Both the position numbers and the translations under genes were made by a program. The notes below the pieces were generated by a model, which saw nothing but the letters and a program-made list of their open reading frames with translations, was not told the DNA's origin and did no database searches. DNA of 62,044 nucleotides, filler included, from Dugesia japonica (lineage: Eukaryota): assembly GCA_001938525.1 (NCBI GenBank). It is 5 parts of 5 records of this genome, joined end to end, with 100 filler letters (N's around TTAATTAATTAA, not from the genome) between each part and the next. Parts side by side here need not be neighbours in the genome. Positions count along the whole stretch, not along the records: positions 32,917 to 53,102 come from MQRL01604510.1; 4 more parts are not named here. One strand, written 5' to 3'. Of the stretch, positions 24,201-62,044 are shown in pieces (within the stretch, counting starts at the first letter, position 1; every line of letters starts with the position of its first letter).

Positions 24201-25588
24201 AATATTATTTTATTATATAGTGAACTGACACAAGGAAAATAATGGGAGTGGTGATAAATTAAAGTGGAGTATAATTATATAAATTAACCGAATCAATATT
24301 TTTTCGAGAAATTGAACAAAAAATAATTTGATTGTCAGTATTAATTATTTTATCTCGTTGAATCCAAATATTTATACCAGATTGTTGCAGATTGAATTTT
24401 CATGAATTTTTGTTAAATTACTATTTTTTTCAAAAATAACTTCTTTAAAGAATTTTGCTTTAGTAATTTATAAAAATTTCATCTGAATAATGAAATTGAA
24501 AAAGAAGGATCGTGATTTAATTTTTTATTTCTAAAGTAGGAGAGAAATCAAACGATAAATTAAATTAAATTTTGGCAGCTGTTGATAATCGAGCTTATAA
24601 ATCTTTTAAATAAATATCGGCATAGACTACTTTATTTCTCCAGTGTGATTTTGTTAAACACTTCAAATCAGCGTTAAAATTAATCATAATATTATTATAT
24701 AATTGATGATTTCACGAAATTTACATTGTTTAATCTATTTTTATTTACTAATCAAACAACATCTTATTTTTTTCACATGAAATCAATAAATTATTAACTC
24801 TGCCAAACTCAAAAATTTTTTTTTGAAACTTCAACTTTTAACTTTCTTCATAATTATTTTAATTGTCTTTACAACATTTCCGTTTTAAATAATTTCTATA
24901 TACTTTTAGAATTCATTTAAAATAAAAGCTTCGATCAAAAATTTTTTTTTTATTGAAATTTGATAACAATTCAATAAAAAAAAACAAAAATTTTGATCGA
25001 AGCCTTTATTTTAAATGAATTCTATAAAACAATCAATGGTTATGTCCAACAATTATTCTCGAAATAATTGCAATTGTAAAAATACTTTTAGAAGTATAGA
25101 AAGATTTTAATTTTTGTCTAATATAAAAAATATGCAGTTTTAAACAAAAGATGAAAAAAGCTGTATATGTTACCTTTAACAATACAAAACTATACAGTAT
25201 GTATTGTTTCAAAAGTTAATGAGAAAATTTAACTGAAAGTTGTAATGTTACTTTATGTGATAAAATATTTTATTTATGAATTATTTTTATCAAGTTTAAT
25301 CGAATAAATTTGTGCTATATTTTATATTAATGGAAGTCAATATTTTGAAAATTAACAATCAGGAAACAAAGTGAAAATGAAATTAGTTTAATCAATATTC
25401 GGGCTTTGATTAATTGGATTTTTTTGAATATTAAATATACAACAATTTGTAAATTTAATTCTATGTATCTTGTTTCGGTTACAAAATAATATTAAATTTT
25501 AAATTCAATTTTGCGCTTCACATGTTTATTGTAATACATTTTTAATAATTTTACTCTCATTAATTTTAATTACAAAGTTTTCATATAT

Positions 25589-25836
25589 ATAAAACATTTG
25601 TTCCATAAATATAAAAAATTTGTTTCATAAATATATAAAATTTGTTTCATGAATATAAAACATTTGTTTCATGAATATAAAACATTTGTTTCATGAATAT
25701 ATAAAATTTGTTTCATGAATATAAAACATTTGTTTCATGAATATAAAACATTTGTTTCATAAATATAAAACATTTGTTTCATAAATATAAAACATTTGTT
25801 TCATAAATATAAAACATTTGTTTCAAAAGTATAAAA
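25589..25836. repeat. 22-bp minisatellite (ATAAAACATTTGTTTCATRAAT, about 11 copies)
   Basis: Directly visible tandem copies. Confidence 0.92.
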
Positions 25837-25842
25837 CTAATA

Positions 25843-26520
25843 CTTCCTCCGTTCCAAAATAAGTGTCCGATTTAGGAATTTTATTTGTTCCAATTTCATA
25901 AAAAAATATCCAATAAGATATACAAAGGGTATATTCACAATTCGAATCAGTATTTCTTCGTCAGAAGCAACATGAAAGTTAGTTTTCACTTTCGTTAAGT
26001 AAAACCATTTTTATCTACATGAATGTACTCCAACATTTCTTTAAATTCATTGAATGAGTCGGACAACATATTGAGAGAATAGTTTAATATACACTTATTG
26101 TTCTTATCTTGCAAGAAAAGGTACTGAAAACCTTAAAAAAGGTTTTAAGGTACTGAAAATTCTCCTCCTTTTAAGATGCGATGCATAGTTCCTAGCGATT
26201 CACCAGGTTTGGTACACAGATCACAAAGTGTTGATCTTTGTGATAGTAAAATTTCCCGCACTTTATTAAGCATTAATTCACGATTTTTACGTTTTCTTCC
26301 CGAATTTCCTTTTTTCTTCGAGTCCACATTAGCTACTGAAGATCCGAAATCATAACATCTTTTTGCCCTATTCTAAATACGATTAATGATTTTGGAGGAA
26401 ATGTGAACATCGACACTGATGCGCTTAATGAGACCGTATTCTAGTTTTGAACGAAGTGAGTATAATATAAGAAGTGAAAGATATGCATTATGTACACATT
26501 TTCATTATGAAACTCTAGAT
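25843..26520 (-). mobile_element. Plant-type (DD39D / Stowaway-related) mariner remnant
   Basis: TA + CTTCCTCCGTTCCAAAATAAGTGTC terminus (Stowaway-like CTCCCTCCGT); minus-strand SKKKGNSGRKRK..RSTL..TMHRILKGG and, across a frameshift, IHVD.KWFYLTK. The second and third catalytic residues are deleted, so the spacing cannot be counted. Confidence 0.75.
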
Positions 26521-32916: not shown

Positions 32917-33490
32917 GAAGATGGTAAGTTTTTCTTACTGATAAATCTTAATGACCCTTGCTGTTTTCTTCTTAAATTTTCTTAACCGGATTCTCTCCGA
33001 CTTTTCTGACCGGAATTATTCACATAAAACAGATTTTACCTCAATTTTAATTAATTTTTTTGTTTAAGTAATTATTATTTTCATGCATTTATTTCTTCAT
33101 TTGATTTTTATTTTCTTTAATAATTCTAATAAATTTGTGATTACTATAATTAATCACATTGAATTTGATCTTCTAGGTTTCTTATTTAATATTATTATCT
33201 GGATTTTCCATTCTGGCTTTCTTCTGGTTCTTTAATTTGGTAATGTTTATTCGTGACCTCTTTTAACCTTGATAATCGTTCCTTTGGGTGTTTTGCCCCA
33301 ACAAATCGCTCTCCGTCTTGTTTAAATTCCGTCCCGGAATTTGCCATAGCTCCTCCCCNTTGCAGAAAATTCCTTATTAATAAAACTGACAGAGCAAGGT
33401 GAAATTTAAGGTCATTACATGCTATCTCATACCACATACATAAAAATTTCTACGTTATACATTCAAATACAATATACATTAAAGTTTACA
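32917..33490 (-). repeat. 3' LTR (partial) of the giant element
   Basis: Starts TGTAAAC on the minus strand immediately after a purine-rich tract; runs into the contig end. Confidence 0.65.
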
Positions 33491-33505
33491 GTTCATCCCC
33501 TTCAT
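33491..33505 (-). promoter_or_regulatory. Polypurine tract (ATGAAGGGGATGAAC)
   Basis: Purine-rich 15-mer directly before TG, ~50 bp after the last ORF. Confidence 0.65.
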
Positions 33506-33555
33506 TGATTTCCGATGGATAAATTACAGTTTATTTACATCGCGCTCAACTTGTT

Positions 33556-34710
33556 CTAATCGACTTCCTCTAGTAGACCGTCCTGGTCGCTAGCTCGTGG
33601 TTTGGAACCATATTTTCGTAATATTTCCGTTACGATTGACTGGGACAGGTTTCTCTTAAATTGGTTATGATTCCACACTGAGGTTCTACTGTGTGTTCGG
33701 CTGGGTGTTGCAGAACCGAGTTGTTTACTTTGGGGTTCTTGTATCACTAAAGGAACTGGCTTTCTGGGTTGATTAGGTGCTGAGATTATGTGCGGGACTT
33801 GATCAATTATTTTGTTTATCCATTCTGGTATTTTGGATTTAACTGGAGCTGACNTGGGTTCCTGGATTATTAACGGTGTGTATTGTCTTGGTAGACTGGA
33901 GATTATTGGTTGCCATTCTGAAGAGTCAGGGTTTAGTGTTGATTTGGGTAGATTAAGACTGATTAGATTCCTTGGGTGTGGTAGGATCGGTAGTGCTAAT
34001 GGATGAAAAATTGGTTGCTGAGCTATGTGCGCTTGCTGTAGTTCCTTAATGGTGGCAAATTGCTCGACTAACTGTTGTTGTTTTTGTTTCATCTCATCTT
34101 CTTTTCCATGGTAGAGGTTTCGCAACTCAATGATTTCCTGCTCCAGGGCTTCGATGTATTGCTGTAAGAATTCGTTCTTTTGCTGGTAATCTTGCATTAT
34201 GCTCTCGAATTCCAAGGACAATTTATTGATACCAGCTTGTACCCCTTCTCGATTGGCTAGGCTGGTTAGGAGTTGATTTTCGGTAGCCAGATGATTTCTC
34301 TCAAACTGCGTGTTAAACAGTTCCTATCTAAAACTGTGGTTATTTTCTTGTTCGACTATTAGTTGATTCTCGAGTAACTTTATTTTAGGTTTGACTTTCT
34401 CATATTTACCCTTCCAGCTTTGGGCTTGTTTGATAGCATTTATTTTCGCTCTATTGGCGTCGATATTGCTTTTTATGTATTTTTGGTGGGTTTTGCACGA
34501 TCGCTTCTTTATTTCTAATTCGTGACGTGCTTTTTCTATTTAACTCTCCAACTCGCTAATATATTTTTGCAATTGTAAATTGGATAGTACATCGATTTTG
34601 GATTCCAATTTCCATTTAAGGACTTCAGGTACGGTGGTGAGGGTTTGAGTTTGTATTTGTAAGATTTGAATCTCATTGCTGAGATGGTTTATTAGGTTTT
34701 CCACGTTCAT
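33556..34710 (-). pseudogene. Accessory ORF3: ~385-codon long coiled-coil protein with a Pro-rich C-terminal half
   Basis: ATG at 34710 is in frame with ORF 33556..34221 across two point stops; heptad-rich E/Q/K/L N-half; repeated PL(I/V)IQEP motif in the C-half. Confidence 0.75.
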
Positions 34711-34825
34711 TTCTAAAATAGGAGAGAGTGATTATTTTTAGTATAATAACATTTTGACAAATATAAGTATATATAATCATACATTATTTACATATTTAAC
34801 TTTATTTATTAATGAAATTTTATTG

Positions 34826-36050
34826 CTAATGCCCTTCGTTCCGACACATAGGGCATTCATTTAAGTTTGTAGCACAATTATAGCATGTTTTAAAATGCCC
34901 ACATGGCAGAAATACGACCTTGATGGTTTCTACAAGTCAGATCACGCAATCGTGATCTAGTAATATCCATTCTTGTTCATATTTTGCCCATGGTTTTACC
35001 GATTTGACTGAGTTTTGATATAACTCATATGGAGTGACTTTTTCAGACCCTTTTTCTGTGAACGTTTGTTTTATTAACTGTTTGGTATTCGTCCTATTTA
35101 ACTTTAAGATATTAGACAACCGGTTAATCTGTAAGTCAATTGCCATTTCTATTTGACTAAGCGACATATTTCATTCGATTCTGTATGCTGTTGTTTGTAT
35201 TTCTTCCTCGTTGATTGGTGTTAGTCTTGAATAATTTGGTTGATGGAATACTTTCTTTGGTAATTTCTCTATTCCTTGTAGTAGTAGAGTTTCTCGTTTG
35301 CAAGTGGCGCATTTGATAACTTTATCTCTGGTTTGCTGGACGAGATATAATCCTTCCATTGCTTTTCCTTCGAGATTTGGTATTTTCTGGAAGGTTTTTT
35401 CTTTTTCTTCGATATCCCATTCCAGATCCTCTAACAAGGCTACTTCTGCTAGGTTCTTTATGATTTTACAATATAGCTTCTTTGGTTCTATTGCTGTTTT
35501 CTCGGTTTCGGGTTTTCTTCCTTTAGTTAGTTGGGATTTGTTGTTTACATTTACATTTAGCAGGAATGGAGAGGTAGGAAACCTTTCCCTATGTGCTTTA
35601 TTGGGTTGTTCATTCATGCCCCATTTGTGTAGGATGCCTTGACAATATATACATTTTACTCCATCTGGTCGTTCTTGGGTGCAGAAGTAATAAAATCCGG
35701 ATTTGGCCATAGCCTCAATAAGTCCAGATAGATAGTTGGGCAATTTGNNNNNNNNNNNNNNNNNNNNNNNNNNNNNNNNNNNNNNNNNNNNNNNNNNGTT
35801 GGGCAATTTGGCGAGAGATTGCTTTCTTGCGTGTTCGTCCCGGTACTTCTCATCAAACACTTTCATTGTGCGGTAACACACCCTTTTACTGATGAAATTT
35901 TCCGGTGCCACAAATACGTTACGGTATGTTTTGTGTTATTGCGGTTTGCTTGATTTCCTCTCGTCCTCTGCTCATGACAAATGATTCGATATCGGAATCT
36001 TCCATCAGTAATCTAGCTTCCTGTATTGATACTTCGAAATTGAATTCCAT
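34826..36050 (-). pseudogene. Accessory ORF2: inhibitor of apoptosis protein (BIR, degenerate BIR, C3HC4 RING)
   Basis: BIR AMAKSGFYY..DGVKCIYCQGILHKW..P.KAH...P.SPF (35564-35827); second BIR-like unit EKTFQKIP..EGLYL..DKVIKCATC..H; after two in-frame TGA stops, CVI*LVETIKVVFLPCGHFKTCYNCATNLNECPMCR (34841-34948), an IAP-type RING. Confidence 0.92.
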
Positions 36051-36279
36051 TTTCTACAAGAGGTATATTATATAGCATTGTTATAGTATTTCTTGATTTT
36101 ATCCTTATGAAACATACTATATTACATAGAATACATATTTATTTGTGGGCTTTCTTATTTTAGATAGCATATATATGTATATATAACCGTATTATTTATT
36201 TATTTTATTCATTTATTTAGTTTATATATATATATATTATGATTATTAGTTTTTTTTAACTTCCTCTATCTCTTAGATT

Positions 36280-36840
36280 TCAGACAAAACTGACTTGGTT
36301 GTGGACACTCCGGGTCTTGAGTGTCTCGATTTCCCTCCTTTGTGAATTTACTACTTTTTTAAGATATTTTAGTTCTCTTGATTGATCAGAGATCAGATCG
36401 TGTTGTTTGGCTACTAATTCCATAGTATAATTTTGTTTTTCTGTGGTGATTTCCAGCATTTGTCGATTTTCTATTATTTGTTGTCGACACATAAGGGTTT
36501 CTGCGTAGAGATTTTCATTCTGGATTTGTAAGATTTTATTTTTGAATTCCAATTCGCACCAATCTACGGGTTTCGTTGTTATTAGGGTTTGTATTAATTG
36601 ATTTTGGTTGAGCTCCAGTTCTTCCAATCGTTGTTGGGTCCATTAAGTTTGGGTTCTAGCACTATTCCATAGTTCTTTAAATTCCTCGTTATGATTTTGC
36701 CAGATTTCATTTAACGTTGCTTGTGGGGGTGTATTGCTTTTAAGATTATTTAATAGAGAGAAATTTCTAGTGCATGACGGACTTACATCAGTTTGAGAGT
36801 CCATAACTTCATTTCCGATTGTTGCTTCTTTTTGGTTCAT
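36280..36840 (-). pseudogene. Accessory ORF1: ~186-codon coiled-coil protein of unknown function
   Basis: ORFs 36643..36840 and 36280..36627 are in frame across a single TAA; heptad-like C-half. Confidence 0.7.
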
Positions 36841-36942
36841 TTCTGAATGTGAAACATTGATTAACTTCGCCGTTGTTTTTGTCTATATACATATTGATAA
36901 GTATTTTACAATTTACATTATTTACAGGTAATTTTTCCTTAT

Positions 36943-38985
36943 TTAACATACCAATATACCCGGTGCCTGGTAGTATCCGGGCCCGTACATTGGTAATTCG
37001 TGAGGTGCGTTTCCTAGTGAAATTCCATAATAACTTGGTGGGGCGAATGGTAATTGTCGCTCCCGTCTGCTGCGGTGATGTTTCTTTTTCTTTGGTTTCG
37101 AAACACATAGACAAATAATGCTTATTATTAACACCGTAATAATAACTCCTCCAATACCTATCACATATCCTAATTCCTGACCTCTTGTTGATTGTACTGT
37201 GATAGTAGTTCTCCTAGGTTCTGTAGTGATTCTTCCTATGCTTTCTAGGTGATTCTTTCTTGGCTCAAATTTGCGTATATTTGACATCCAATTTTTCAGA
37301 AACTCCGCCCTTCTTACTTCCTTCTCATGGTTTTTTGTGGTGGTGGTTATCTGAGTTCCAATGGTAGTTGATAATTTAGGCGTGTGTGTGGACATTTTGG
37401 TGGTCTCCTTTTGTTTTCCTTTTGTTTTTGTTTTGATTACTATATATTGATTGATCACTGTGATGAATTCAAATCCCCATAATTCTTTGTCGAATTCCCC
37501 AATGCCCATTTCTTGGTACCTTTCCCCTCTCCAATATTTTTTACTTCCGAACTTCCATCCCCACTCGTAGAGATCTTTGATCGTATGTATTACCATTTGT
37601 TCCACCTTCTCCACAACCCGTATATAATACCTACGCTTAACTTTTTTCACTTGTAGTGGATATGGCCCCGGTTGCCAATATGGTTTCCATCCCTCCATTT
37701 CCTGATTTGTTATGGAATGTACTTCTCGACCTTGAGTGACTGTTATGCTTTTTTGACCTATTTCTTTTCCTTTTTTATTCCACACATCCGATTTGTATCG
37801 CATGTGCTGCCATATCATAGTATGGTAAAGGTATTCGTTTTTTGAACATATTTTCGGAATCTCATCTCTTGTATTCCTGGTTATCCATTTTTTGTACTTG
37901 AGGTTATTTTCCGAATAATATAGTACGAAGTTCATTTCTTGCTGGGGTTCAGATTCGTTACTTGCTTCGTAGACTAATGGATTCTTTTCATTTTTTAACG
38001 TTACGTCCCAGGTTTTTTCTATCTGCCACTTATTGATATCAAATGTCAATAGTTTTCCTACTATTGGTTCTTGGCTTAGGAATTGTATAATAATCCTCCC
38101 TTTTACTTGATGCAGTTTAATCGTAGTGCTTTTTTGGCTTTTGATTACTGGTGTTAGAATTAATTTTCCGTAACTATACAGTGCCTGGGTTCTCTGTTCC
38201 CTTCGCAGCCTTATATGACTTATTTTTATGACGTGTATTTTCCTTTCCCTGAGGAATATTCTGTGTTCTGTTAGGACTGGTTCGTTTACCTGGCATTCTT
38301 GTCCTCTGATTCCCTTTAGGATCATTATTATAGTTGTTAGTACGATTTGCCCACTGGGAATCTCGTTCTGAGTGGTTACTTGTACTTGCCGTATTGCCAA
38401 TGCCAGTAACGCGAGCCCAACCAGAATTATTCCGGTTAACCCATACAACATTAGTGACATAGGAAGTCCTCTTCCCATGTTTCCGTTTATTCTCATTGTC
38501 AGCCACGTTAATATACCATAATCCCAATTTGTGTTGATTACTGCCCATAACAACAGAGATATTTTAACTATTAATTCCATTTTATTCCTCTTCTCGCTTC
38601 TTTGCAATAGTTCCTTTTTTGATTTACCTGGTTCTGTTTGTTCCCCCTCATCCTGTATCCATATCATTTTCCTTTTCTTCGCCCTTCTGTGCGTTGTTTG
38701 GACTAATTGTCTTTCTCTTTCTTCCATTCCATCCCCTTGGCCCTGTAATTTTTCTCTCGTTGGTTTCCCTTGTTTTTTACACTCTTCGAGGGGATTTGCG
38801 ATAATGCTTGGTTCCGATTTTTTCCAAGTTACATTGCTTTGGATAGTTGGCATGACCATGCTTCCTGGCAATCGGGCTTCTAACGGTTCATATACTCTAA
38901 TCCAGTTCCATCGTACTAGCGTATGGTGAAATAGATGAATGGATTTTAACAATTCTTTGCTGTATACTTCGCACAAGATAAACAC
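36943..38985 (-). CDS. 680-aa membrane protein: three N-proximal hydrophobic segments, ~380-aa ectodomain with Thr-rich stalk, C-terminal TM, basic tail with PPSY
   Basis: Intact ORF; hydrophobic runs LIVKISLLLWAVI, LMLYGLTGIILVGLALLALAI, IVLTTIIMILKGIRG|Q; TM LGYVIGIGGVIITVLIISIICLCV followed by SKPKKKK; no recognised homolog. Confidence 0.8.
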   Translation of the reverse strand: MFILCEVYSKELLKSIHLFHHTLVRWNWIRVYEPLEARLPGSMVMPTIQSNVTWKKSEPSIIANPLEECKKQGKPTREKLQGQGDGMEERERQLVQTTHRRAKKRKMIWIQDEGEQTEPGKSKKELLQRSEKRNKMELIVKISLLLWAVINTNWDYGILTWLTMRINGNMGRGLPMSLMLYGLTGIILVGLALLALAIRQVQVTTQNEIPSGQIVLTTIIMILKGIRGQECQVNEPVLTEHRIFLRERKIHVIKISHIRLRREQRTQALYSYGKLILTPVIKSQKSTTIKLHQVKGRIIIQFLSQEPIVGKLLTFDINKWQIEKTWDVTLKNEKNPLVYEASNESEPQQEMNFVLYYSENNLKYKKWITRNTRDEIPKICSKNEYLYHTMIWQHMRYKSDVWNKKGKEIGQKSITVTQGREVHSITNQEMEGWKPYWQPGPYPLQVKKVKRRYYIRVVEKVEQMVIHTIKDLYEWGWKFGSKKYWRGERYQEMGIGEFDKELWGFEFITVINQYIVIKTKTKGKQKETTKMSTHTPKLSTTIGTQITTTTKNHEKEVRRAEFLKNWMSNIRKFEPRKNHLESIGRITTEPRRTTITVQSTRGQELGYVIGIGGVIITVLIISIICLCVSKPKKKKHHRSRRERQLPFAPPSYYGISLGNAPHELPMYGPGYYQAPGILVC

Positions 38986-39431
38986 AACTTTTTTAGGGTG
39001 GATTGCCGGATAAGTGCTTCAATTGGTAGTTCGATCCGTGACCCTTCACAATCTTTTTTGAACCAATGTTTTCGTCTCGATAACCATGCTTTCTGATCGT
39101 AAATAGCCTTCCACGTAATTTTTAGTATAATTTGTGTTTTCTTCACACATTGTGAACAGTTTCTTTCTAATTGCATTACTGACAGTTGGCATGTTACTTT
39201 TCTGATATGGGCACCATTCTCCTCTGTTCTAGGTGTTTGCATTCCTTGATATGTAATTGGATAGATTGTAGTAGCGCTCATAGCTTCTATCATAAGTGGT
39301 CTACGCATTTGGTTACCTGAATTGAAAGACAATGTATTAGCCCTTTGATTCATAACAATTTCTTTATTATTAGTTAACGACGCACTTTGCCGTATCTGCT
39401 GGGATTGGATATTACTTGATGTATGTTTGAT
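38946..39431 (-). pseudogene. Post-integrase linker region with Cys pairs (CSQC, CLSC)
   Basis: In frame with the integrase tail across one TGA at 39432; overlaps the 680-aa ORF in another frame. Confidence 0.55.
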
Positions 39432-41324
39432 TCAACCTCTTTTACCAGTTTGTTTTATCCCAGAAATACTCGGTGAGGTATTTATGATTGTACTACCTTC
39501 CTTAGTTTTTCCTTGGTTGATGGTTTGTCTACAAACATTCATCTTTAATACCTTAGTTATCTTTTGTAATTCTGTTTCCGTTCTTACTGTATTTGTAGCA
39601 GGTAGACTCGTTTCTTGTTTTACTTTTTTCTCTTTTCCCGTTAATAATCCTTCCCCGTTTTCTTCAAACTCAGCGTCCTTGCTGAGACTGTTTTTCTTTA
39701 CCACTGTTTCCCTACTCCATGGTGAAGGATTTATTAGTAGTTTACTATTTACCGCCATGGCTTTTTGTGACCGTAATGGATAACTGTGTGATATATTTGC
39801 TTCCATTCCTTTCGACTTCCGTGGCCGCCCTGGCCTTCTACGGTCCGTCGTAGTGGGCTCGATGCTTGTGGTTGGTGCGGCTTCTTCTGTCATCGCCGCC
39901 TTTTTACACAAGTTGGCGTGGTATATCTTGGGCTTCTCTAGTAGGTTCCCTTTTTTCCGAACATTGAGGTTAGTTTCTGTTACTTCGATTACTTCATACG
40001 GTTCTTGCCATAGTCTTTTTAATTTTGATGTCGTACCGACAAAAATATCTGGTAAATTGATAATTACCATATAGCCTTTTTTTAAAGGAATGTTGCGCCG
40101 CTGATTTGTCATGTAGTTCCTTGTAGCTTTCCTGGTAGAAACCTACATTTTCTTTGGCTTGTTTCCATATTTTCTGCATGGTCTCATTTAAATTTGCAAC
40201 AAAACCCGTTTCATCTTGATATTGTGTTATCGTTGGTTGGAATTCCAAATCAATAGGCATGTTGCGTTCCCTGCCATACATAAGACCGAATGGAGTGTAT
40301 TTAGTTGCTGGGTGCACACTCATCCGATATGCAAATAGGCATAATTGAATATGCTTATCCAAGTTGTTTTGTTCCTTCTGCGCGTAACTATACAACGTAT
40401 TGATCAGGGTTTTGTTAAACCTCTCCGTTAATCCATCCGTTTGCGGATGATATGGTGATGTCCGTAGTTGGTGTATTTTGAGAAAGTTCGATATTTCTGC
40501 TAATATATTGCTCATGAAATTTTTTCCTTGGTCGGTCAATATTTTCTTCGGAGTGCCGTATCTGCTGAAGAATTTTCGTACCAAAATGTCTGCTTTTGTG
40601 GTCGCTTTCTGATTCTTCATCGGAAGTGCCTCTGGGAATTTGGACAGATAATCCATTATGGTGAGTATGTAGATATTTCCGCTTAGGGTTGGTGGTAATG
40701 GTCCAACTACATCCATAGCGATGATTTCCATTGGCGCCGCTGGTACCGCAATGGGTTTTAATAACGCTTTTACTTTTTTCCTGTTCCTCGTCTGGCAGCA
40801 CATATCTGACATTTAGCAATCCATTCCTTCACTGATTCTGTCATGTGAGGCCAGTAATATTTCTGTCTTAATTTGGATTCAGTTTTNNNNNNNNNNNNNN
40901 NNNNNNNNNNNNNNNNNNNNNNNNNNNNNNNNNNNNNNNNNNNNNNNNNNNNNNNNNNNNNNNNNNNNNNNNNNNNNAACCATCCTTTGGTAAGTGCATA
41001 ACGACCGCCATTCTTCTTTAGGTGTTCCTTCATCTTGGGTTCACATTCTAACTTTTCCAAATTATAACTTTCCATATATTTTATAATGATCTGGATCTCC
41101 TCGTCGTCAGCCTGCGCTTGTTTTAACCCATCGAAATTTCTATCTTCGGCCAATATAAAATATACCATACCAACTATTTTCTCCAATAACTCCCTGAATG
41201 TAAATGTTTCTGTAACCTCGGGTGCGTTCTCCGTGGCTTCTGGTCCACCGATCCTTGATAGAGAATCCGCATTTGAGTTGGCTTTGCCTGTTTTAAATTT
41301 TAATAGCGGACAATAATCTTGCAT
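39432..41324 (-). pseudogene. Integrase (zinc-binding, DDE core, SH3-like GPY/F region, AT-hook tail)
   Basis: KYYWPHM..CQIC; IAMDVVGP, LTDQGKNF, YHPQTDGLTERFN; LWQEPYEVIEV..HANLCKK; RRRPGRPRK; frameshifts near 40790 and 40080. Confidence 0.95.
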
Positions 41325-41333
41325 TGCTAGTTG

Positions 41334-41819
41334 CTATTTTGCCATTCTGTTCCAACGTAACGGTTTCTGAGCCATAAAAGTGATTGGTAAGTGATCCGTA
41401 TAGATAAGTACTTCGTGCCCATGTATAAGTGATCGAAAATGTTTAGTGGCTTTTACAATAGCCATTATCTCTCGTTCTGTGGTGCTATAATTTAGTTCTG
41501 CTCCTTGGAATTTCTTGCTAAAATATGCGATTACTCTTTCTCTTCCTTGTTCATCTAATTGACTCAACACTGCACCCATCGCGTATCCACTAGCGTCGGT
41601 GGCCAATATAAATGGCTTCTTGAAATCTGGGTGTACCAAAATGGGTGCCGTTAATAATTTATCTCGTAATGTCTTGAATGATTGCTGTTGCTCTGGACCC
41701 TATATGAATGCAGTATCTTGTTTGACCAGTTCTTGCATCGGCTTCGCAATTTTTGCGAAATCCTTGATAAATTTACGATAATAATTTGCGAGTCCTAGAA
41801 ACTCCTGTATTTTGAGTAC
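41334..41819 (-). pseudogene. RT connection and RNase H
   Basis: QEFLGLANYYRKFI; FILATDASGYAMGAVL; NYSTTERE; IYTDHLP. Confidence 0.95.
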
Positions 41820-42700
41820 TTAATTTGGTGGTGCTAGATTTCGTATCTTCTCTGTATTTCGCGGATTCGGTTCTTTGCCTTTATCCGATATTAAATGGCC
41901 TAAATATGTTACTTTATTCTTGGCCCATTCGCATTTGGTGGGTTTCACTTTTAGATTCCATTTACGTAACCGTACAAACACACTACGCAAGTCATTAAGG
42001 TGCCCATCAAAGGTTGGCAAATAGATAAATAGATCATCAATATAGGCAATACATTGAGATATGCCATGGGTTACATAATTCATCATCCGTTGGAAAGAGG
42101 CTGGTGCATTAGTAAGCCCGAATGGCATACGGATAAATTGGTATAAGTCCTTGCCTGTGGAAAAGGCCGTTTTCTGTCTATCTTCTGGTTTGATCTTTAT
42201 TTGCCAATAACCGCTTCGCAAATCTAACGTAGTGAATATTTTAGCATTACACAATAATTGCAATAATTCGTTGATATCTGGCAACGGATAAGTATCCTTT
42301 TTCATTTGAGCATTTAATCTTCGGTAATCAATACAGAATCGTTGTGTCCCATCTTTTTTATCTACTAATATCACTGGTGACTGCCATGGNGAGCAGCTAG
42401 GTTCTATCACACCGATTTTCACTAATTTAGCTGTTTCCTTATTTGCGAATTCCTTTTTCTCCACAGTCATGGCGTATGGTTTCTGTTTACATGGCGTTTC
42501 ATCCGTTAATGGAATTGTGTGCATTTTTGCGAGGCACATACCCAACTCTTCATCCGCCCATGCAAAAATATCTCGGAATTCTTCCAGCAGTTGCAGTATT
42601 GCTTGTTTTTGTTCTTCTGACAAAGTTTCCGTTTCTACTTTGAACGTTCTCTCGATTTCCGGTTCAGCGGCTACTTCTTCCATCACTTCGGGCTCTGATT
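41820..42700 (-). pseudogene. Ty3/gypsy reverse transcriptase
   Basis: RFCIDYRRLN, LDLRSGYWQI, MPFGLTNAPASFQ, YIDD, YLGH. Confidence 0.97.
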
Positions 42701-43384
42701 CGATGAGTTTAGCGTGCCCATTCTGGAGTTTGGTCTAATTGTGATATCTTTTTCTGTAAAATTAACTAAGCTAACTGGTACTTCCCCACTTTTGTTGACC
42801 GTGGTTATTCCTCCTGCCGTTTGTAGCTCGTACTGGTGTGCAAATCCGTCATATGGTTCGAAATAACAATCTCCTTCATAGGCACTTTTTGTACTGACTA
42901 CACAATATACTTGGCATCTACTAGGTACCACAATTTCTTCTTTAGTAAATACCTCGTGATCCTTTACATGGGTATAACCTTCCAATGATTGTAACCGTAA
43001 TGTTGAGAAGTTTAATATGCCATTTTTCATCAGGACGGGAAGAATATCCGTTCCCAATATACACTGTCCCATCATTTCCACTATGATCATATTGTGTTTA
43101 ATTCTGTTATCTTGATATTCGACTTCACAGGCTAATTCTCCAAAAATTTTGAGACTACTACCATTTGATACATCTGCTGTAGTGTTAGTGAGTAAGATAA
43201 TTTTATATTCGGTTATCGCGATTTCATCTATCGACAGCATTGATATGGTTGCTCCGGTGTCCACTAGGGCTGTTATGGGTCGGCCGTTGATTTTATCTAT
43301 AATGGTTAATACTGGTCCGCCATTGAGACTTGTGCATACTACATCTGAAGGGTTATGACTGGAGTTTGTTGGTATTTTGTTTTT
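42683..43384 (-). pseudogene. Aspartic protease 2 followed by a beta-rich spacer
   Basis: KINGRPITALVDTGATISML..CILGTDIL; in frame with the upstream ORF across one TGA at 43385. Confidence 0.9.
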
Positions 43385-44680
43385 TCATCTTGGTTCTCGT
43401 TCTTGAAACCTTATCCAATCGTCCCTTATTAAGGTATTGATATTAGTGATTTTCTGAAGGTCTTGGTTCGAATTGTTTTGTTCATTTCGGGCAGTTGGCT
43501 GCTGTCTCAGCCGGTTGGGCGTTGGCTGATTCCATTGTTGTGGTCGTTTCTGTTGGGTTATCATACGAGTTTTCTGATATCCTACCGGTGCATACTCTTG
43601 ATCATAGTTTTCTCGTATCGTTAGTTTTCTCAAGTCCAATATTCCCTTTGGACAGAGGCGTGGTAAGAGGTCCAATCCAAAGAGACAGTCGAATGTTAAT
43701 TCGTTCATTATTTGAGGTTTATGCCAGAAACGGATTCCATCGCTTTCTATCGCACATATTGCTTCTGCCGCGGGTGAGATTTTTTCTCCAGAGGCCGTGA
43801 TGATAACTCCTTTGATTATTGTTATTCTGAGTAGTCGATAATCTTCTAGTATTCTTTTATGGACTAACGTCGTACTTGCTCCTGTATCAATAATNNNTAT
43901 TACCCATCTTCCGTCGATTTTTATTCTTTTTTGTAGTAATTTTGCTTTCTGGGAAATCATCATACATACGGTCTGGTTTTCTAATTTGTCATCCTCCGTT
44001 ATTTGATTATTCGGGGAGCGCAGATTTTGCTCGGTCACTCTTCTGTCCATGGTTGATACATTGTTCTCTGTTAGTAGCGCCATATTAGGGGCTTGTGGTG
44101 GGCTTATATATGGATTGCTGTACATGGGACATGGTGCCCATACTTGTTGGGGTGGTTGGTTCATGGGATGCCAACCATGTTGCGGATAAGCGTTATAATA
44201 CATTTGTGCTGGTGCTGGCGTGCTTTCTCCTCCTCCGAATTTTAACGCATTTTTCAGTCGTTGCATTTTGCTGATCTTTTCGTATTGCTGCCTTTTGAAT
44301 TCTGCATCGTATTCCATGGCAGTTTTATAACTAGGTACATGAGGCGTTCCACTGCTTTCTCCTCTATCATCGTCGCTGCTACTACTACTTTCATCTTTGT
44401 TTTTAAACCTTTCTTTGAATTGGTTAAAATATGATATTTTCTTTATGCCCATTTCTTCGCATAACAATTGGAGTTGCATTATGACTTCCTTGTCTGATCC
44501 TCTTATTTGTCCGAGCTTCCGAATGAATCTCTTTACCCTGTCAATATCCTTGGAGTGACTATTAAGCACCACAGGCTTGGCTAAAAATGGAAATATTCCC
44601 GTTACCATTTTCCAATTCACCTTCTTCTCTCTTTTGTATATATCAAAACATGCGAACAATTGATTAATTACTACTCGTGT
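43385..44680 (-). CDS. Glycoprotein cytoplasmic region, Pro/Gln-rich linker and aspartic protease 1
   Basis: Same uninterrupted ORF (43385..44761) as the glycoprotein TM; IKIDGRWVIxIIDTGASTTLV..DCLFGLDLL. Confidence 0.88.
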   Translation of the reverse strand, partial: TRVVINQLFACFDIYKREKKVNWKMVTGIFPFLAKPVVLNSHSKDIDRVKRFIRKLGQIRGSDKEVIMQLQLLCEEMGIKKISYFNQFKERFKNKDESSSSSDDDRGESSGTPHVPSYKTAMEYDAEFKRQQYEKISKMQRLKNALKFGGGESTPAPAQMYYNAYPQHGWHPMNQPPQQVWAPCPMYSNPYISPPQAPNMALLTENNVSTMDRRVTEQNLRSPNNQITEDDKLENQTVCMMISQKAKLLQKRIKIDGRWVIXIIDTGASTTLVHKRILEDYRLLRITIIKGVIITASGEKISPAAEAICAIESDGIRFWHKPQIMNELTFDCLFGLDLLPRLCPKGILDLRKLTIRENYDQEYAPVGYQKTRMITQQKRPQQWNQPTPNRLRQQPTARNEQNNSNQDLQKITNINTLIRDDWIRFQEREPR

Positions 44681-46404
44681 TACTGAAATTATCAGCATAA
44701 CTCCCAACAATCCTGCTATTGCTTGTCCAAATATGATGAATCGTCCCCACATTTTCCGCATTACGTTTTCTGTGGCCTTTTGTAAGTGATCTGCTGAAAA
44801 TAACGCATCTTAATTCACTCGTCCATCTATGTTAGTTCCACTGGTTAATTGCACTATGTTGGATAAGATTTGCATCCTTCGGACTGGAAACAGCATGTAT
44901 TCCCTGGCTTTCTCCAGATCTTCCCTGCTGTAAATTCCTCCTTTATTTACGTCAATTGGAGTGAATTGCATACCCCCATTCAATCGTAACATGGAGAATT
45001 TCCGTGGTTCGACTCCCACTGCCATTCGTTGCGGAAATCGTATCCATGGACCATCTATCATTATGTATTGTGGTCCAAATACATTAGAGCAATTTATGAT
45101 ATTTGGCCTATAACCCAGTGGTGATATGATTCGAGTAATTGGTTGCACGTATCGTTTCTCGTTATTATGGATAATTTCTATTTCATTGTAGCAGTTTTTG
45201 GGATACAACTAGAACTCGGCATCTAGGGCCTTGCATTTGTATAGGTACATTACTTCTCCTACTACTCGACCGAATTGTCCTTTTTCCAGAGGAAGTAGTG
45301 GAGTGACCCTATCTGGGTTTGTAACTGCCATTGCTAATTTGGTCTTTAATATTTCTTTATTTAATGTGCAGTCATTTTGAATAAGATCGTGGTACATTCG
45401 TCCGATGGTATCTTGCATTCGGTGAAATATATTGTCCAGTTTATTATTGGTATAAAGATGCAATTTGATATCTTGTGACATTTCTGCTGCCTGTGCCGTC
45501 TTTATCCGATGTTCTGACACGAATATTCCTTTGTAATTTGTTTTATACACTATTTGCCCACACTTGGACATCGAATTTCCCTTAATTAACCGGATGGTCT
45601 CATCCTGCTCTGAGGAATTAACACTGTAGGAGTTGTGTGCCATTGCTGGTCGTATATTCTCGGGCCGGACCGTGTTGTTTCTTTGAGATTATCTATCCTA
45701 TCTTTTAGATTACCCTCCTTTGGGGTTTGATCGATCGGTGTTAAAGCTCGTTGTCCTTGATATTCATTGAACATTGCCTCTTTTAGGTGGGCTAGCTTAC
45801 AGTCCTGGTGATCTACTTTGTATGTCAATGTTGATGTACCTGCATTACAGGATCCATCGGCCGCCTTGCAGTATGACCTCCCTTTCATAGTCAGATCTTG
45901 AGCGTCAAAAAATGCTTCGTATTCCTTAAGCTCCACTGTATACGTTTCAATTGCTACCAAGTATGACCATACCTCTCCCCAGATGGTGTATGTACCATAT
46001 TCGCAGTGGCCTTTATGTGAAGATATGCTTCCTGCTGCTTCTATTGGTTGATCAATCACATGTCCTTTCTTGGCGATGACTTGAGTTCTATGTTTGATGG
46101 TGATCTTTCCTGTAGTAAATCCTTCATCGCATTGTTGTCCGGTTAAATGTACGGGGTGTCTCACTGTTCCTGGATCAATTATTGAAGTGTAGCTGTGGTA
46201 CCCACAATGAAATATAAACGTTTTTACCGCTACCGTACACTCACATACTTGGGCCTTATAATAATCTGACTCCTGATATCAGTGGTACACTGAATTATTA
46301 CGGAGTGAAATTTTCTCCGGATTTGCGTCTGGACATTCCTCGGTATCCACTAATGAGAATACCTCTTTCCTAACTTGCATCCCATCGCAATCATATGCTA
46401 CGAT
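44681..46404 (-). pseudogene. Env: chuvirus/Monjiviricetes-like class III fusion glycoprotein (ectodomain and TM)
   Basis: After a signal-like helix: IVAYDC..FSLVDTEEC..YQ..VCECTV..FHCGYHSYTS..C..G..C; later KCGQIVYKTNY, NKLD, C.LNKEILKTKLA, GEVMYLYKC, CYNEI..YVQP.TRII, C...FGPQY, GGIYSREDLE, then TM FIIFGQAIAGLLGVMLIISV. Three point stops and one frameshift (~45615). Confidence 0.85.
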
Positions 46405-46650
46405 GGCTTCATTTCTGCACATCATTAAGAATAACACGAGTATTGCGGTGATTAATGCTTGCCAAGAATTTCCTCGAGGCCCACGTGTCCAACCATTCTC
46501 GATCTCATTTAATTGTTCTCGAACAATCCTTATTACTCTGGTTGCATTTTCATGTGATGGCTGTGTCTTAGGGCATATGGCCTCAACAAATTTTTTCCAT
46601 CCTCCTTGTTGTTTTATCAACGGTGCGATTTTATTTTGCATTAGATCCAC
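46405..46650 (-). pseudogene. C-terminal fragment of a Bcl-2-like domain (BH2) and hydrophobic anchor/signal peptide
   Basis: IAPLIKQQGGWKKFVE matches the BH2 pattern WIxxxGGWxxFV (L codon TTG is one change from TGG); hydrophobic WQALITAILVLFLMM ~40 aa later. The rest is lost at the 46650 junction. Confidence 0.62.
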
Positions 46651-47883
46651 TATCGGTAATTTACTAAGAATGAAGTTTTTTGACCATAGTGAACTAATAA
46701 TTGGAGAAAGAGAAAATAAATTAAAAGAATTAATTAAATTAATTGATGAAAGAAAAAACGACGAACTTAAATTAATTTCAGATCAGAAAAACAAAGAAAT
46801 GAACATAATTAATATTTAAGAAGAAAATAAAATAAATAATTCATTTAATTAAATAAAATAAATCGTACTAATTAAAATGATTTATTTTTAAAAGAAAACT
46901 AAACATTTTGTGAAATATGGCAAAAACGACGGCTTCCCAAGATGGAAAAATGAGCAATTAAGAAGATTATGGTCAAGAAAAAATCGGAGAGTTTNAAAAT
47001 TTAAGTTAAAAAATCATAACAAGACTCAGAAAGAAGATACAAGGGTTTGAAGATGGACCAATAATTTTGGAATCCTAAAATATCCACCAATAAAATGAAC
47101 TCACGTTCAAGCCAATGGAAACGTCAGAAAGATCGTACAATTCCAAATAACCAATGAAAGAAATGGGGGTGTAAAGAAAAACAGTATAAATACCGTTTCA
47201 ATTTCAGACGAAACGGATTTAAAAAAAATTAATCCTTAAGTGACAATCAATACTCAAACCGAACCTCGACAAAACAAAAAGCAATATTAATCAATCTTAG
47301 TTATTGGAAAATTCACTGAAATCAAGAATCTCAACGGTAATTATTTATCCATATGAAATTTGGGTGCAACAATTTCCGACTGGAAGATGAAAAATTATGG
47401 AGGACCATTAGAATCGTTACTGGCTACCAATATGTTGTCAATTCACGTGCTGTGCTTGCTCCGGATCGGAATTCAGTCTATGTTAGTTATATTGATTGTT
47501 GTAATTATATGCTTAATTATTAATAACTGAAGTTTGTTAATCTCAATATATTTTTCACTTACAAACTCTTTTGTTTTTATGATAATTAATCTCCTAACTA
47601 ATGAAATTAAAAATAACTAAGATTAATCAGATTAATAAACACTCCATAAACTGGAAATTTTATAAGAAAACGATAAATATGGGTCTTAAGTTAAGCCAGT
47701 ATCATGAAGTACGAACTTAAACTACAGGAATGCGAGTCTGTACTCGAACTACGAGTCAACGGCTCCATTCCGAAGATCTGGATTTTTGGGGACTCCAAAT
47801 TAAATTCTTCGCGGGGTTTTATTAGGCTGACCATCCTGGACTTAATTATTAAAACCTCAACCCACCTAGACAAAACCCCAACA
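46651..47883 (+). repeat. Solo-LTR-like element (~1.23 kb) that truncates the giant element
   Basis: Abrupt shift to A-rich non-coding sequence; termini TATCGG..CCCCAACA; CCAAT boxes (~47112, ~47151) and TATAAATA (~47185); 3' 180 bp similar to 50670-50848; no matching TSD. Confidence 0.55.
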
Positions 47884-53202: not shown

Positions 53203-53817
53203 GATTCAACTTTTGCAAATTTACAATAATTTCCAGTGCTGCAAATATTAATTATTAGCAAATAAAGTTAGTCAATCAAACTTTAGAAATAATACATTAA
53301 TAACGTTTGAAAATCAATCAACTAATTCTAACCTTTTTACTTATAAATCCAGTTATTTTCTAATAAAGATTTACTCGTATTTTATATAATTATATCATCA
53401 ATTTTATACATGCATTATTGACTAGAACAAGTAATATTATCCATAAATTATCCAAAATATCAAATCTATAAAATAATATAAAACATGAAATCTATACATG
53501 TTATTTTAACAACTAAATTTATAAGCATTCTTTGAAATCATTTTACCATTAAAAATTCACTTACTGTTTGCAGGTATTATTTTAGATTTTCGAAACTTTT
53601 ATAAAACACGATCATACTTTAATAGTTTTAAAAAATATCAATTTAATGCTTTGTAATAATTAAATTTATTATAAAGAGCACTATTAAAACAAATTATAGA
53701 GAATTAATTTATTATTTACTAGTTCCAGCTTAACTATTTCTGATGTTTTCATTAATTAATTACATTTTTGGTACAAATTGATTTTATTACAATATATTAA
53801 TTGATTAATTTTTAATA
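53203..53817 (+). repeat. Left arm of a ~615-bp near-perfect inverted repeat (partner 61431-62044)
   Basis: GATTCAACTTTTGCAAATTTAC.. at the contig start is the reverse complement of the last bases of the window; identity continues for ~615 bp. Confidence 0.95.
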
Positions 53818-53896: not shown

Positions 53897-56800
53897 TGTC
53901 GCAGTTTCAAAAGTTCCGTGAAAATATTTAGAAAATTTTTAGAAAAAGCTACAAGTTTTTACAATTTTCATGTGAATTTTTATATTAATGATTCGAGGAG
54001 TTTTCCAAACTCTCCTAACATTGGTGGCAGCAGTAAACACTGATGCAATCTCAGAAAAGTTGTTGCCAAAAATATTTTGCAGAGGCGATGATCTAGAAAA
54101 GTTTATTAAACGGTGTGAAATATACTTTGAGTCAAAGAACATCGCTGTTACGATAATCACGAACGTTGGGTGATATTTATGCTTCATGAAAATTTAATGG
54201 AAGCATACGTGAAGACATTGAAGAAAGCTGATTGATATTGAGAGAGATTGCGATTAGCTTTTAAAAGCAAGAGATGCATAATAAAGGATTTATAGAATCT
54301 TGTAAGCTATCAACATGGTGATGAAGAAATTGAGGTGTATTTTACAAAGTGGAAGATTAAGTCGATGAATTTTTAGCAAATGGAGAGTTGACGAAAAACT
54401 CTTATCAAAAATGCTAATTATTTGTGCAAATAGTAAAAAAGCAAAAGCGCTTATCATGCGAAAATTGGAGAAATTAGAAGATATAAAAGAAACTTTATCA
54501 TTAGATGAAAAAATAGAAAAAAGAGAACCTATTTATGTAGTAAAGAGTTACGCTGGTATAACACGTTGAAAACGTTTCAGAGAAAGGAGGCAAAATACTG
54601 AAAATGTTACAAAATAAAGAGACCTAAATTATTGGACATGCCAGAGTTATGAGCATACAAAAAGAGAGTGTCCAAAAATTTCTCATGTGGAATGTTGTAC
54701 TTTTCACAAGAAAGGGGCATTTAAGTAAAAATTGCATAGACAAGAAACCAACAAGATGTTATGGGTGTGATTAGATTGGTCATATCACAATAATGTGGAC
54801 AGAAATTGTGTGTGGTAGATGTAAAAGACCGGGTCACAGAGCAGAAAAATAATATTCGAACAATAATAAACCTAGACTAGAAGATAGAAGATACAATTTT
54901 AAAAGCGGACAAGAAACAAAAGATTGGAGTCGGACAAAACCAATTCATGCTATTTGAGAAGAATTTGATGATGAGAATGAAGAGAGATTTTCTGAGAGTA
55001 TAATAGAAAATGACAATCCAAGAAGAGAATAACCAAAAAGTAGGGCTACATTAGTAGAGGAGTTGTTCGGAGCTATTCATTAAAACGAGTTACCGTTTGA
55101 ATATCCTCAAGAGACCGAGAAATGGAATGAGACGAGTAAAATTGGAGAAAAAGTTTACAGATTCTTAAAAAGAGAAAGTTTTAATAATGTGGAAATTAAC
55201 AAAGCAGAAGTGATAGGAATAATTGAAGAGAAACAGAAGGTAGAAATTTCGTGTGGAAAAATGCAAAGGAGACCTAGCATTTCAGTGATGATCAAGGGTG
55301 AATAGTTTGATTGTTTGTTGGATACAGGAGCAAGAATAATTGTGATGAGCATGAAAGGATTTAATAGACTCGGAGAAACAATGTTAGAGAAAAGCGATGA
55401 ACGATTGCATTTCTTGAATAACAGCTCTTTGGAGATAATTGGGAAGATGCGTGTCGAAGTTATAGTTTCAAAGGTGTGCAAGGAAGTAACATTTATAATA
55501 GTAGAGAAATTAATACCAAATTTAATTGGTTGAGTAAAATTTCAGAATACTTTTAGATATCATCTTCAAAAAACGTGCAGAGTAGACATCAATAATCATC
55601 GAGAAATATTTNTTTGCAATATTGAGGCAAAATTTGGAAGGCAGATACATACGGTTGAACGATTGAGACATCCATTGAAGATTCTAGAAATTAACAAAGA
55701 TCATATATTGACTGCAATTTTTAAGAATAATGAGAATGTATTTTTGTCGGATAAATGGGAAATTGGATCCACACACTTAACGAAGCATCGAATAATCACT
55801 AAAGAAGGTCCAATCAACATAAAAACGTATTGCCAACCAATGAATCTAGATGAGAAGATTAAAGAGGCCATTAATAATTTATATGATAATGGTATCATTC
55901 GGGAGTGTAATTCTCAATGGAATACGCCATTAATCTGTGTTTGGAAAAAGGAAAAAGAAAAATATAGGATTATGCTTAGACTTTAGACAGCTCAATGCAA
56001 TAACAGAAAGACAAGCTTTTCCTTTATTGAATGTGGACGAAATGCTAGATGCTTTGGAAGGTACGCGGTATTTTAGCTCAACAAACTTGGGAAATGCATA
56101 TTTTTCAGTGGACCTCAGTGAAAATTCTCAGGAAAAGATGGCTTTTACGACTAAAAAAGACAATTTTGTTTCAATAGAATGCCTTTCAGAATTGCAGCAG
56201 CACCAGGTAAGTTCCAGGAAATGATGATTAAAGTAATCGGAAAAATAAAAGGAGCGATAGTTTATCTAGATGATATTCTCGTATTTGCCGAAACAAAAGA
56301 GCAACACTATGAAATAATCAATAAAATATTAATAGAAATTAAGAAGGGTGATCTAAGAGTTAATCCTGAGAAATGTCAATTCATGCAAAAGGAGATCAAC
56401 ATTTTANNNNNNNNNNNNNNNNNNNNNNNNNNNNNNNNNNNNNNNNNNNNNNNNNNNNNNNNNNNNNNNNNNNNNNNNNNNNNNNNNNNNNNNNNNNNNN
56501 NNNNNNNNNNNNNNNNNNNNNNNNNNNNNNNNNNNNNNNNNNNNNNNNNNNNNNNNNNNNNNNNNNNNNNNNNNNNNNNGGCCAAGTAACAAGAAAAATG
56601 AATGGTCAAATGAATTAGAAGAAGTTTTTAATGAAATGAAAGAAGCAATAATGATGTCTTCAATATTATGTTTTCCAGATATAAATATAGGATTTATTTT
56701 TGACACGTATGCGAGTTTCGATACGATGGGGGCAGCATTATCTCAAAAAAACAACAAGGGGCAAGAAAAAGTAATTTCATATGGGTCACACGCAATGGGG

Positions 56801-57442
56801 AGTCATGAGAGAAGTTATTGTAATACACGAAAAAAATTGCTCCCAATTTACTACTTTTGTATTCATTTCAAGCACTACTTATTTGGGAAGAGATTTATCA
56901 TCAGAACAGACCATAAAGCCATCACTTTTATGCTAAATACCAAGAAGCTGATAACATCACAGTTTCAAACTTGTATTAATTATATGAGCAATTTAGATAT
57001 AAAATTGAAATATAGAAAAGGATCGCTTCATAAAAATTCGGATATGTTGTCAAGGAAGGAATGCGGTACATGTGCACAATGTCCAATGTTACATGAAGAA
57101 TCCAAAAGTGGAAAATTAAAAACAAGGATGTTAATTACAGTAGATATTCAAGAGAAACAAGGCAATTTTGGTGAGAATGATGAAGGGACATGGATACATG
57201 ATAATAAAGTAGAAGACGTTATAATGAGGATACACCATCTTTTGTGTCATGCTGGAGCATAAAAAGTTGCAGCGTATTTGAAGCATAAGTATAACGCGAA
57301 TCATTTGTGCAGCAAAGTACAAGAGGTTGTTCGAAGCTCTATAAAAGGCAAGAAAGCTAAAGTGTTTTAAACAAAAACGAAGGAAGAAACAAAAAAGACT
57401 CAGTCATCTGAAATGTTTGAACTGTTATTTATAGATGTGTGT
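53897..57442 (+). mobile_element. Compact Ty3/gypsy element, decayed, truncated in the integrase
   Basis: ..AACA then PBS-like TGGTGGCAGCAG (~54022); gag with about four CCHC-like knuckles (54630-54850); CLLDTGA; LDFRQLN, YLDD; RNase H (RTDHKA); integrase H..L.H and FIDVC, where it stops. Confidence 0.9.
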
Positions 57443-61430: not shown

Positions 61431-62044
61431 TATTAAAATTAATCAATTAATATATTGTAATAAAATCAATTTGTACCAAAAATGTAATTAATTAATGAAA
61501 ACATCAGAAATAGTTAAGCTGGAACTAGTAAATAATAAATTAATTCTCTATAATTTGTTTTAATAGTGCTCTTTATAATAAATTTAATTATTACAAAGCA
61601 TTAAATTGATATTTTTTAAAACTATTAAAGTATGATCGTGTTTTATAAAAGTTTCGAAAATCTAAAATAATACCTGCAAACAGTAAGTGAATTTTTAATG
61701 GTAAAATGATTTCAAAGAATGCTTATAAATTTAGTTGTTAAAATAACATGTATAGATTTCATGTTTTATATTATTTTATAGATTTGATATTTTGGATAAT
61801 TTATGGATAATATTACTTGTTCTAGTCAATAATGCATGTATAAAATTGATGATATAATTATATAAAATACGAGTAAATCTTTATTAGAAAATAACTGGAT
61901 TTATAAGTAAAAAGGTTAGAATTAGTTGATTGATTTTCAAACGTTATTAATGTATTATTTCTAAAGTTTGATTGACTAACTTTATTTGCTAATAATTAAT
62001 ATTTGCAGCACTGGAAATTATTGTAAATTTGCAAAAGTTGAATC
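61431..62044 (-). repeat. Right arm of the ~615-bp inverted repeat
   Basis: Reverse complement of 53203-53817. Confidence 0.95.

Follow-up and report, generated by a model that had tools for sequence, protein, structure and literature searches.

In the 62,044-nucleotide stretch of Dugesia japonica DNA analysed here (GCA_001938525.1; the window), a broken IAP gene was found within the 3′ accessory part of a Ty3/gypsy retroelement that is decayed, truncated at its 5′ end, and likely of the Burro type. We put at roughly 0.8 the probability of this reading, in which intact ancestors of the element used the gene as an anti-apoptotic ubiquitin ligase. The copy in the window is a pseudogene, predicted from its sequence to yield no working protein, and as it stands this truncated element with its broken IAP would be unable to protect cells.

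Three minus-strand segments (35935–35174, 35170–34940, and 34936–34829) share one reading frame, which is broken by two stops, both TGA (35173–35171 and 34939–34937, minus strand). The translation, with X in place of the stops, was scanned with Pfam, whereby a BIR domain (41.6 bits against a cut-off of 22.9) and a RING of the zf-C3HC4_3 family were recognised (Table 1). The gene thus carries the minimum of one BIR domain (PF00653) by which an IAP is defined, and the top matches of the same translation in a PDB sequence search were IAPs. For identification of relatives, a full HMMER search was performed against 1.84 billion representatives; it returned 2383 hits at E ≤ 0.001, the bulk of which match BIR and RING only as separate pieces. 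Matches over a single long stretch were given by the ENA proteins P0017 (30% identity) and P0021 (28%) and by the shorter P0139 (24%), all of which are colinear with the window gene and without introns, and among which the zinc ligands are invariant. These proteins (P0017, P0021/P0151, and P0139) come from contigs of 1.9–16 kb and form an atypical group of IAPs.

Table 1. Features of the IAP gene and of the retroelement that carries it, in positions of the window
Feature	Position	Strand	Evidence
IAP pseudogene (BIR, BIR-like, UBA-like, RING)	34829..35926	-	translated frame, Pfam, alignment to relatives
BIR1; ligands 35653, 35644, 35593; fourth is Ser; gap 35748-35797 inside	35560..35842	-	PF00653 E 1.9e-10
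Second BIR-like domain, divergent (relatives: CxxC...HxxxC; final ligand missing here)	35231..35407	-	relatives, profile comparison
UBA-like linker (weak)	35012..35104	-	hhalign probability 52%, P 1.5e-4, 31 columns
C3HC4 RING, stop at second ligand position, 5-residue tail	34844..34948	-	PF13920 E 8.1e-11
BH2-like remnant of BCL2 domain, truncated 5′ end	46582..46641	-	Bcl-2-like protein 1 PDB match, E 1.7
Env: mononegavirus-type fusion glycoprotein, stops and frameshift	44633..46455	-	PF24664, E down to 1e-21 over five segments
Aspartyl protease 1, DTGA at 43888	43661..43924	-	PF13975 E 5.5e-5
Aspartyl protease 2, DTGA at 43261	43040..43294	-	PF13975 E 1.2e-7
dUTPase-like segment between PR and RT	42719..42910	-	PF00692 E 4.6e-4, 20.4 bits vs curated cut-off 22
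Reverse transcriptase, YIDD at 42044	41895..42362	-	PF00078 E 6e-35
RNase H	41340..41696	-	PF17919 E 2.9e-38
Integrase (zinc finger, core) in Ty3/gypsy order	40444..40889	-	PF17921 E 2.7e-10, PF00665 E 1.3e-14
691-aa open frame, two hydrophobic segments; accessory gene	36946..39018	-	no Pfam family
Coiled-coil-like accessory frame, one stop	36283..36882	-	visual judgement of coiled coil
Coiled-coil-like / Pro-rich accessory frame 3′ of IAP, two stops	33559..34731	-	frame reading
Candidate polypurine tract 33361-33350 and 3′ LTR start ~33346, inferred, unpaired	33060..33361	-	purine run, contig ends

An earlier, sequence-only reading of this DNA had described the gene as a complete BIR-BIR-RING IAP without introns, its open reading frames running in frame across TGAs and its RING missed by the ORF track. 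The RING that it recovered by reading through is real, and the stop at 34939–34937 coincides with the position of the second RING zinc ligand in the relatives. Introns could likewise be excluded, residues 10–341 of P0017 being aligned over 35926–34841 in a single frame (E 4e-30). BIR and RING stand by Pfam, but "complete" does not: besides the two stops, two ligands are lost, the tail is short, and Pfam finds only one BIR. The fourth zinc ligand of BIR1 reads Ser (35572–35570), as had been noted, leaving the window copy with no intact CCHC zinc site in a domain whose ligand is kept in P0017 and P0021; the second domain also lacks its fourth ligand (35233–35231). Only five residues follow the last Cys of the RING, against 13 in 119 of the 142 RING-bearing hits and five or fewer in none of them. 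The combination of C3HC4 RING and C-terminal tail of about 13 residues, typical of RING-type E3 ligases, is therefore not found in the window copy, in which a recognisable RING is broken by a stop and cut short, but is present in the three relatives, whose tails are 13, 27, and 29 residues long. The start of the gene is probably damaged as well, because similarity to the relatives extends 5′ of the first in-frame ATG (35866). The 50-N scaffold gap within BIR1, by contrast, is likely an assembly artefact, since it is flanked by an identical 13-mer on both sides and is bridged by one contig.

The second domain was examined by profile comparison. Its CxxC...HxxxC spacing is common to all family members, for none of which (four of four) did Pfam make a BIR call at this place; at 4.6–6.7 bits against the BIR profile, it is not a second canonical BIR of the DIAP1/Op-IAP type. 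When its profile was aligned to canonical BIRs with hhalign, 61 columns were matched (P 5e-4), and against the family's own BIR1 the probability was 80% (E 1.4e-5); the linker, used as a control, gave P 0.5 and no alignment. On profile comparison alone, the second domain would thus appear to be BIR-derived. The sequence-only reading had called it degenerate, and divergent it is; because P0017, P0021, and P0139 have it too, however, its odd form is best read as a conserved, atypical trait of the family and not as decay, only the last ligand having been lost in the window copy. The linker ahead of the RING resembles the UBA of IAPs, BIR-slice controls giving P 0.3–0.4; a UBA-like segment is likely present there, albeit with a weak signal.

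Residues of the peptide-binding groove were then compared. Immediately ahead of the zinc-binding His (H-1), 285 of 391 canonical BIRs have Glu, whereas the three BIR1 domains of the family have Ala, Leu, or Ile; in XIAP numbering, this Glu belongs to the groove in which caspase and SMAC peptides are bound. At the type II groove positions (W, D/E, E/Q, aromatic), numbered as in XIAP BIR3, the window BIR1 keeps two of four, including W and the acidic position, and the relatives' BIR1 domains keep none of the first three. An AlphaFold model of P0021, built from four sequences, had a mean pLDDT of 39 and was poor except in BIR1, with the second domain unresolved; for its BIR1, Foldseek found solved type I and type II BIRs as near-equal matches (E 1.9e-4 versus 2.3e-4). 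The missing Glu suggests action as an E3 ligase rather than direct blocking of caspases, and because it is absent throughout the lineage, an E3 or adaptor role may be narrowly preferred. The likeness to Op-IAP and DIAP1 that had been proposed accordingly extends to BIR1 and the RING, but not to the atypical second BIR, the likely UBA-like linker, or the groove Glu, lacking from BIR1 in three of three.

To place the gene among known IAPs, a quick tree was built from 141 BIR+RING rows of the 151 considered, rows without either domain, including P0139, being left out. The window copy, P0017, and P0021 were grouped with 69% SH-aLRT on long branches, and over BIR and RING the identity to any of the 140 other proteins in the tree is at most 46%. 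The earlier suggestion of a captured host or viral IAP is borne out insofar as the gene is cargo of a retroelement, but among these 141 rows the tree names no donor of either kind. Word-indexed protein searches with the IAP gave no match. Scans of IMG/VR and of metagenomes gave RING-only matches, in 2 of 105 and 5 of 232 stretches, respectively, none of which shows the IAP family in context; one metagenome sequence, L001, is a canonical BIR-RING gene.

The IAP is located on the 3′ side of a Ty3/gypsy polyprotein that is decayed and encoded on the same strand. Read in the coding direction, the element consists of a putative BCL2-like remnant, a mononegavirus-type Env, two proteases, a dUTPase, RT, RNase H, and integrase, followed by the IAP region; the PR-RT-RH-IN order is that of Ty3/gypsy LTR retroelements. 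For the 20-residue BH2-like motif, Bcl-2-like protein 1 was the only PDB match at E ≤ 10, a weak one, and Pfam gave no hit on this stretch before Env. Env has hydrophobic stretches at 46455 and 44743, and its C-terminal half shares a single frame, broken by stops, with both proteases and the dUTPase (45688–42686). The tandem proteases are 29% identical to each other. Between integrase and IAP, the 691-aa frame is free of stops amid the decayed element and includes a Thr-rich stretch; it may encode an attachment protein or a further envelope protein. Downstream of the IAP, the sole purine run followed by TG within 33000–33600 is a candidate polypurine tract, and loose contig ends at 33343 and 33367 coincide with a depth peak in the bin of this candidate tract and LTR. 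No LTR pair was found within the window. About 13.5 kb of the element remains, the 5′ part, including Gag and MATH, being absent. A word-indexed protein search with the Env-PR segment gave no match, and the IMG/VR scan yielded no RT relative.

Several further observations were made in the neighbouring sequence. Right where the element is cut off on its 5′ side, strand skew is reversed over a short stretch (46900–47200), which may be an inverted fragment; a plus-strand Pfam scan there gave no hit. Just past the 3′ end, remnants of two further genes lie on the minus strand, one of a mariner-type transposase (32360–32190, PF01359 E 6e-6) and one of an additional RT (31660–31370, PF00078 E 3e-5), and a tandem array of a 22-nt unit spans 25535–25880. 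A perfect inverted repeat of 610 nt (53203–53812 and 61435–62044), beside a scaffold gap and the window end, encloses a second decayed gypsy element (plus strand, PR-RT-RH at about 55270–56960), a C2H2 finger, and a weak match to DNA polymerase B2 (60250–60771, E 0.04); this region is either a Polinton-like transposon with other elements nested inside it or an artefact of assembly.

Base composition was used to compare the IAP region with the rest of the element. GC content and strand skew are 0.378 and 0.29 in the IAP region and 0.390 and 0.22 in pol, whereas all 68 flank windows are unlike both (GC mean 0.257, maximum 0.359; skew maximum 0.18). The flank GC of about 25% is compatible with planarians, and no more than that; A/T content is over 70% in S. 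mediterranea (PMC11410931). In the DNA run X1, 5171 contigs matched over 33000–40000, with 30 of 30 bins covered; 404 were alike at 99% or more, 975 at 95–99%, 2295 at 90–95%, and 1497 at under 90%, and their summed depth is not a copy number. Because these contigs are mostly 90–99% alike across all bins, the IAP is present in several divergent DNA copies. No X1 contig joins IAP to pol in another copy. That the IAP is cargo carried by the retroelement is supported by shared strand, shared composition, presence in multiple copies, and a Burro-like layout. Its placement inside a retroelement, as first proposed, thus stands on composition and position, although not on a pair of LTRs.

Decay affects the whole element. 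The 14 internal stops that were checked are of all three kinds (7 TGA, 3 TAG, and 4 TAA), and several frameshifts are present, with Env, RT-RH, and the accessory frames interrupted. Copy-specific differences, at which almost every contig departs from the window copy, fall at third codon positions in 5 of 29 cases (p 0.08), a weak tally that is not a dN/dS and for which 29 of 40 rows were usable, 11 falling outside the frames used, out of 603 in existence; it is weakly in line with expectation under neutral decay. At 35232, within the codon where the second domain has lost its fourth ligand, the window copy differs from every one of the 14 contigs that cover the site. In three RNA runs labelled as the same species, the matching records numbered 0 (among 10.5 million), 21 (among 13.6 million), and 5 (among 11.6 million); all are partial and under 95% alike, and as the runs carry no control that the lineage occurs in them, they are no test of silence. 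In RNA run X12, three reads, each less than 95% alike, follow BIR1 for part of its length at 35621 and then diverge; a related IAP is transcribed in that sample.

The order of genes corresponds to that of Burro, a giant planarian Ty3/gypsy element. Burro carries a BIR and a BCL2-like motif; its Env is mononegavirus-like and in frame, with BCL2 on one side and PR on the other, and a dUTPase separates PR from RT (PMC6431247). Burro1/GYPSM1 of dugesiid planarians goes back to Jurka 2007 and Grohme 2018, as described in the same source, which also reports decaying Burro fragments with stops and frameshifts in D. japonica itself; BURRO1 is PIWI-silenced and active (PMC8532177). The element in the window has a candidate for the BCL2-like motif, the mononegavirus-like Env in frame upstream of PR (PF24664), the dUTPase-like domain at the expected place between PR and RT (PF00692, below its cut-off), RT, RH, and IN, the BIR/RING cargo, and many copies, decayed ones among them. 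It differs from Burro1 in being 5′-truncated and in lacking an LTR pair, Gag, and MATH, Gag with CCHC knuckles and MATH being Burro hallmarks together with a size of 25–30 kb, and in having two tandem proteases and no ankyrin hit, where the accessible text on Burro describes one protease, although the original accounts may include a second. Because its gene order is the published Burro hallmark, the element is likely a Burro-type giant retroelement, an assignment set by gene order and not by sequence comparison with Burro1.

The cargo has a counterpart in B-IAP of Burro1, a BIR+RING protein reported by Lee et al. (2026 Dev Cell), as summarised in PMC13465017, to protect stem cells from caspase-mediated apoptosis. 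Both are BIR and RING proteins carried by a retroelement; the gene in the window, unlike B-IAP, is a pseudogene. The atypical second BIR and the UBA-like linker are absent from that summary of B-IAP, whereas the original description may have them. Compared with RING-type IAPs generally (cIAP1/2, XIAP, DIAP1/2, and Op-IAP), the family has the BIR1 fold and the C-terminal C3HC4 RING, and shares with cIAP and XIAP the likely UBA ahead of the RING, but differs in its CxxC...HxxxC second BIR and in a BIR1 without the groove Glu. The idea that such an IAP keeps carrier cells alive agrees with what is reported for Burro1 (PMC13465017) and is hence not new, and it does not extend to the broken copy studied here. 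No other description of IAP-bearing retroelements was found in the literature searched.

Because the gene is intronless and broken, and no contig joins IAP and pol in another copy, a processed pseudogene of a host IAP was considered, one whose chance landing in or near an old gypsy element was followed by passive amplification. We regard this as distinctly improbable: the gene has the composition and strand skew of the element, its nearest full-length relatives are intronless-looking atypical IAPs rather than canonical ones, no poly(A) remnant follows the RING, and BIR cargo belongs to the published Burro layout (PMC6431247). Slightly less doubtful, though still unlikely, is a non-Burro, env-bearing Ty3/gypsy lineage with its own independent capture of an IAP, possibly from a DNA virus, and a non-planarian host. 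The duplicated protease, the 691-aa membrane protein, and the atypical second BIR go unmentioned for Burro in the accessible text of PMC6431247 and PMC13465017, and the tree names no donor; the rare BCL2-Env-PR-dUTPase-RT order together with a BIR would, however, have to arise twice, the in-frame Env of Burro is the first known case according to PMC6431247, and the matches obtained from IMG/VR were RING-only, without any RT relative.

A functional gene, maintained by splicing or by recoding of TGA as a residue, deserves mention in that both IAP stops are TGA and one stands at the Cys position of the relatives. Recoding was rejected, because internal stops of all three kinds and several frameshifts occur, in Env, RT-RH, and the accessory frames; ordinary Cys codons are moreover used 58 times in 3045 codons, and other zinc ligands are lost by missense. 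For splicing, the colinear alignment leaves no intron space. Taken together, the chance that this gene is functional is very slight.

The reading of a dead copy of a once-active anti-apoptotic cargo is preferred. RING-type IAPs are E3 ligases, in which the tail supports dimerisation and the BIRs hold substrates or partners. In an intact ancestor, the IAP would have been transcribed separately from the Env-Pol polyprotein; its RING, via the tail, would recruit E2 and ubiquitylate partners held by the BIR domains, which would lower caspase-dependent death of cells with an active element. The protein may have acted alongside the element's BCL2-like domain. On this account, the IAP in the window chiefly adds one more example to a known system and brings no new mechanism; a BIR1 without the groove Glu and a duplicated protease are small additions. 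An extension that we hold to be no better than tentative, and rather unlikely, is a distinct Burro lineage with an IAP subfamily of its own (BIR, CxxC...HxxxC BIR, UBA, and RING) that would serve as a non-caspase-binding E3; the lineage, multi-copy but dead here, would also carry a tandem protease and another membrane glycoprotein. If true, this would amount to an endogenous virus whose accessory genes resemble those of poxviruses, and to a natural loss of the host-transposon mutualism of the Burro1 type.

Retroelements with anti-apoptotic genes are rare, and B-IAP of Burro1 is reported to support planarian stem cells (PMC13465017). A decayed relative allows comparisons to be drawn on purifying selection on the IAP during spread of the element, on stress resistance of hosts with only dead copies, and on the effect of the atypical second BIR and the missing groove residue on B-IAP action.
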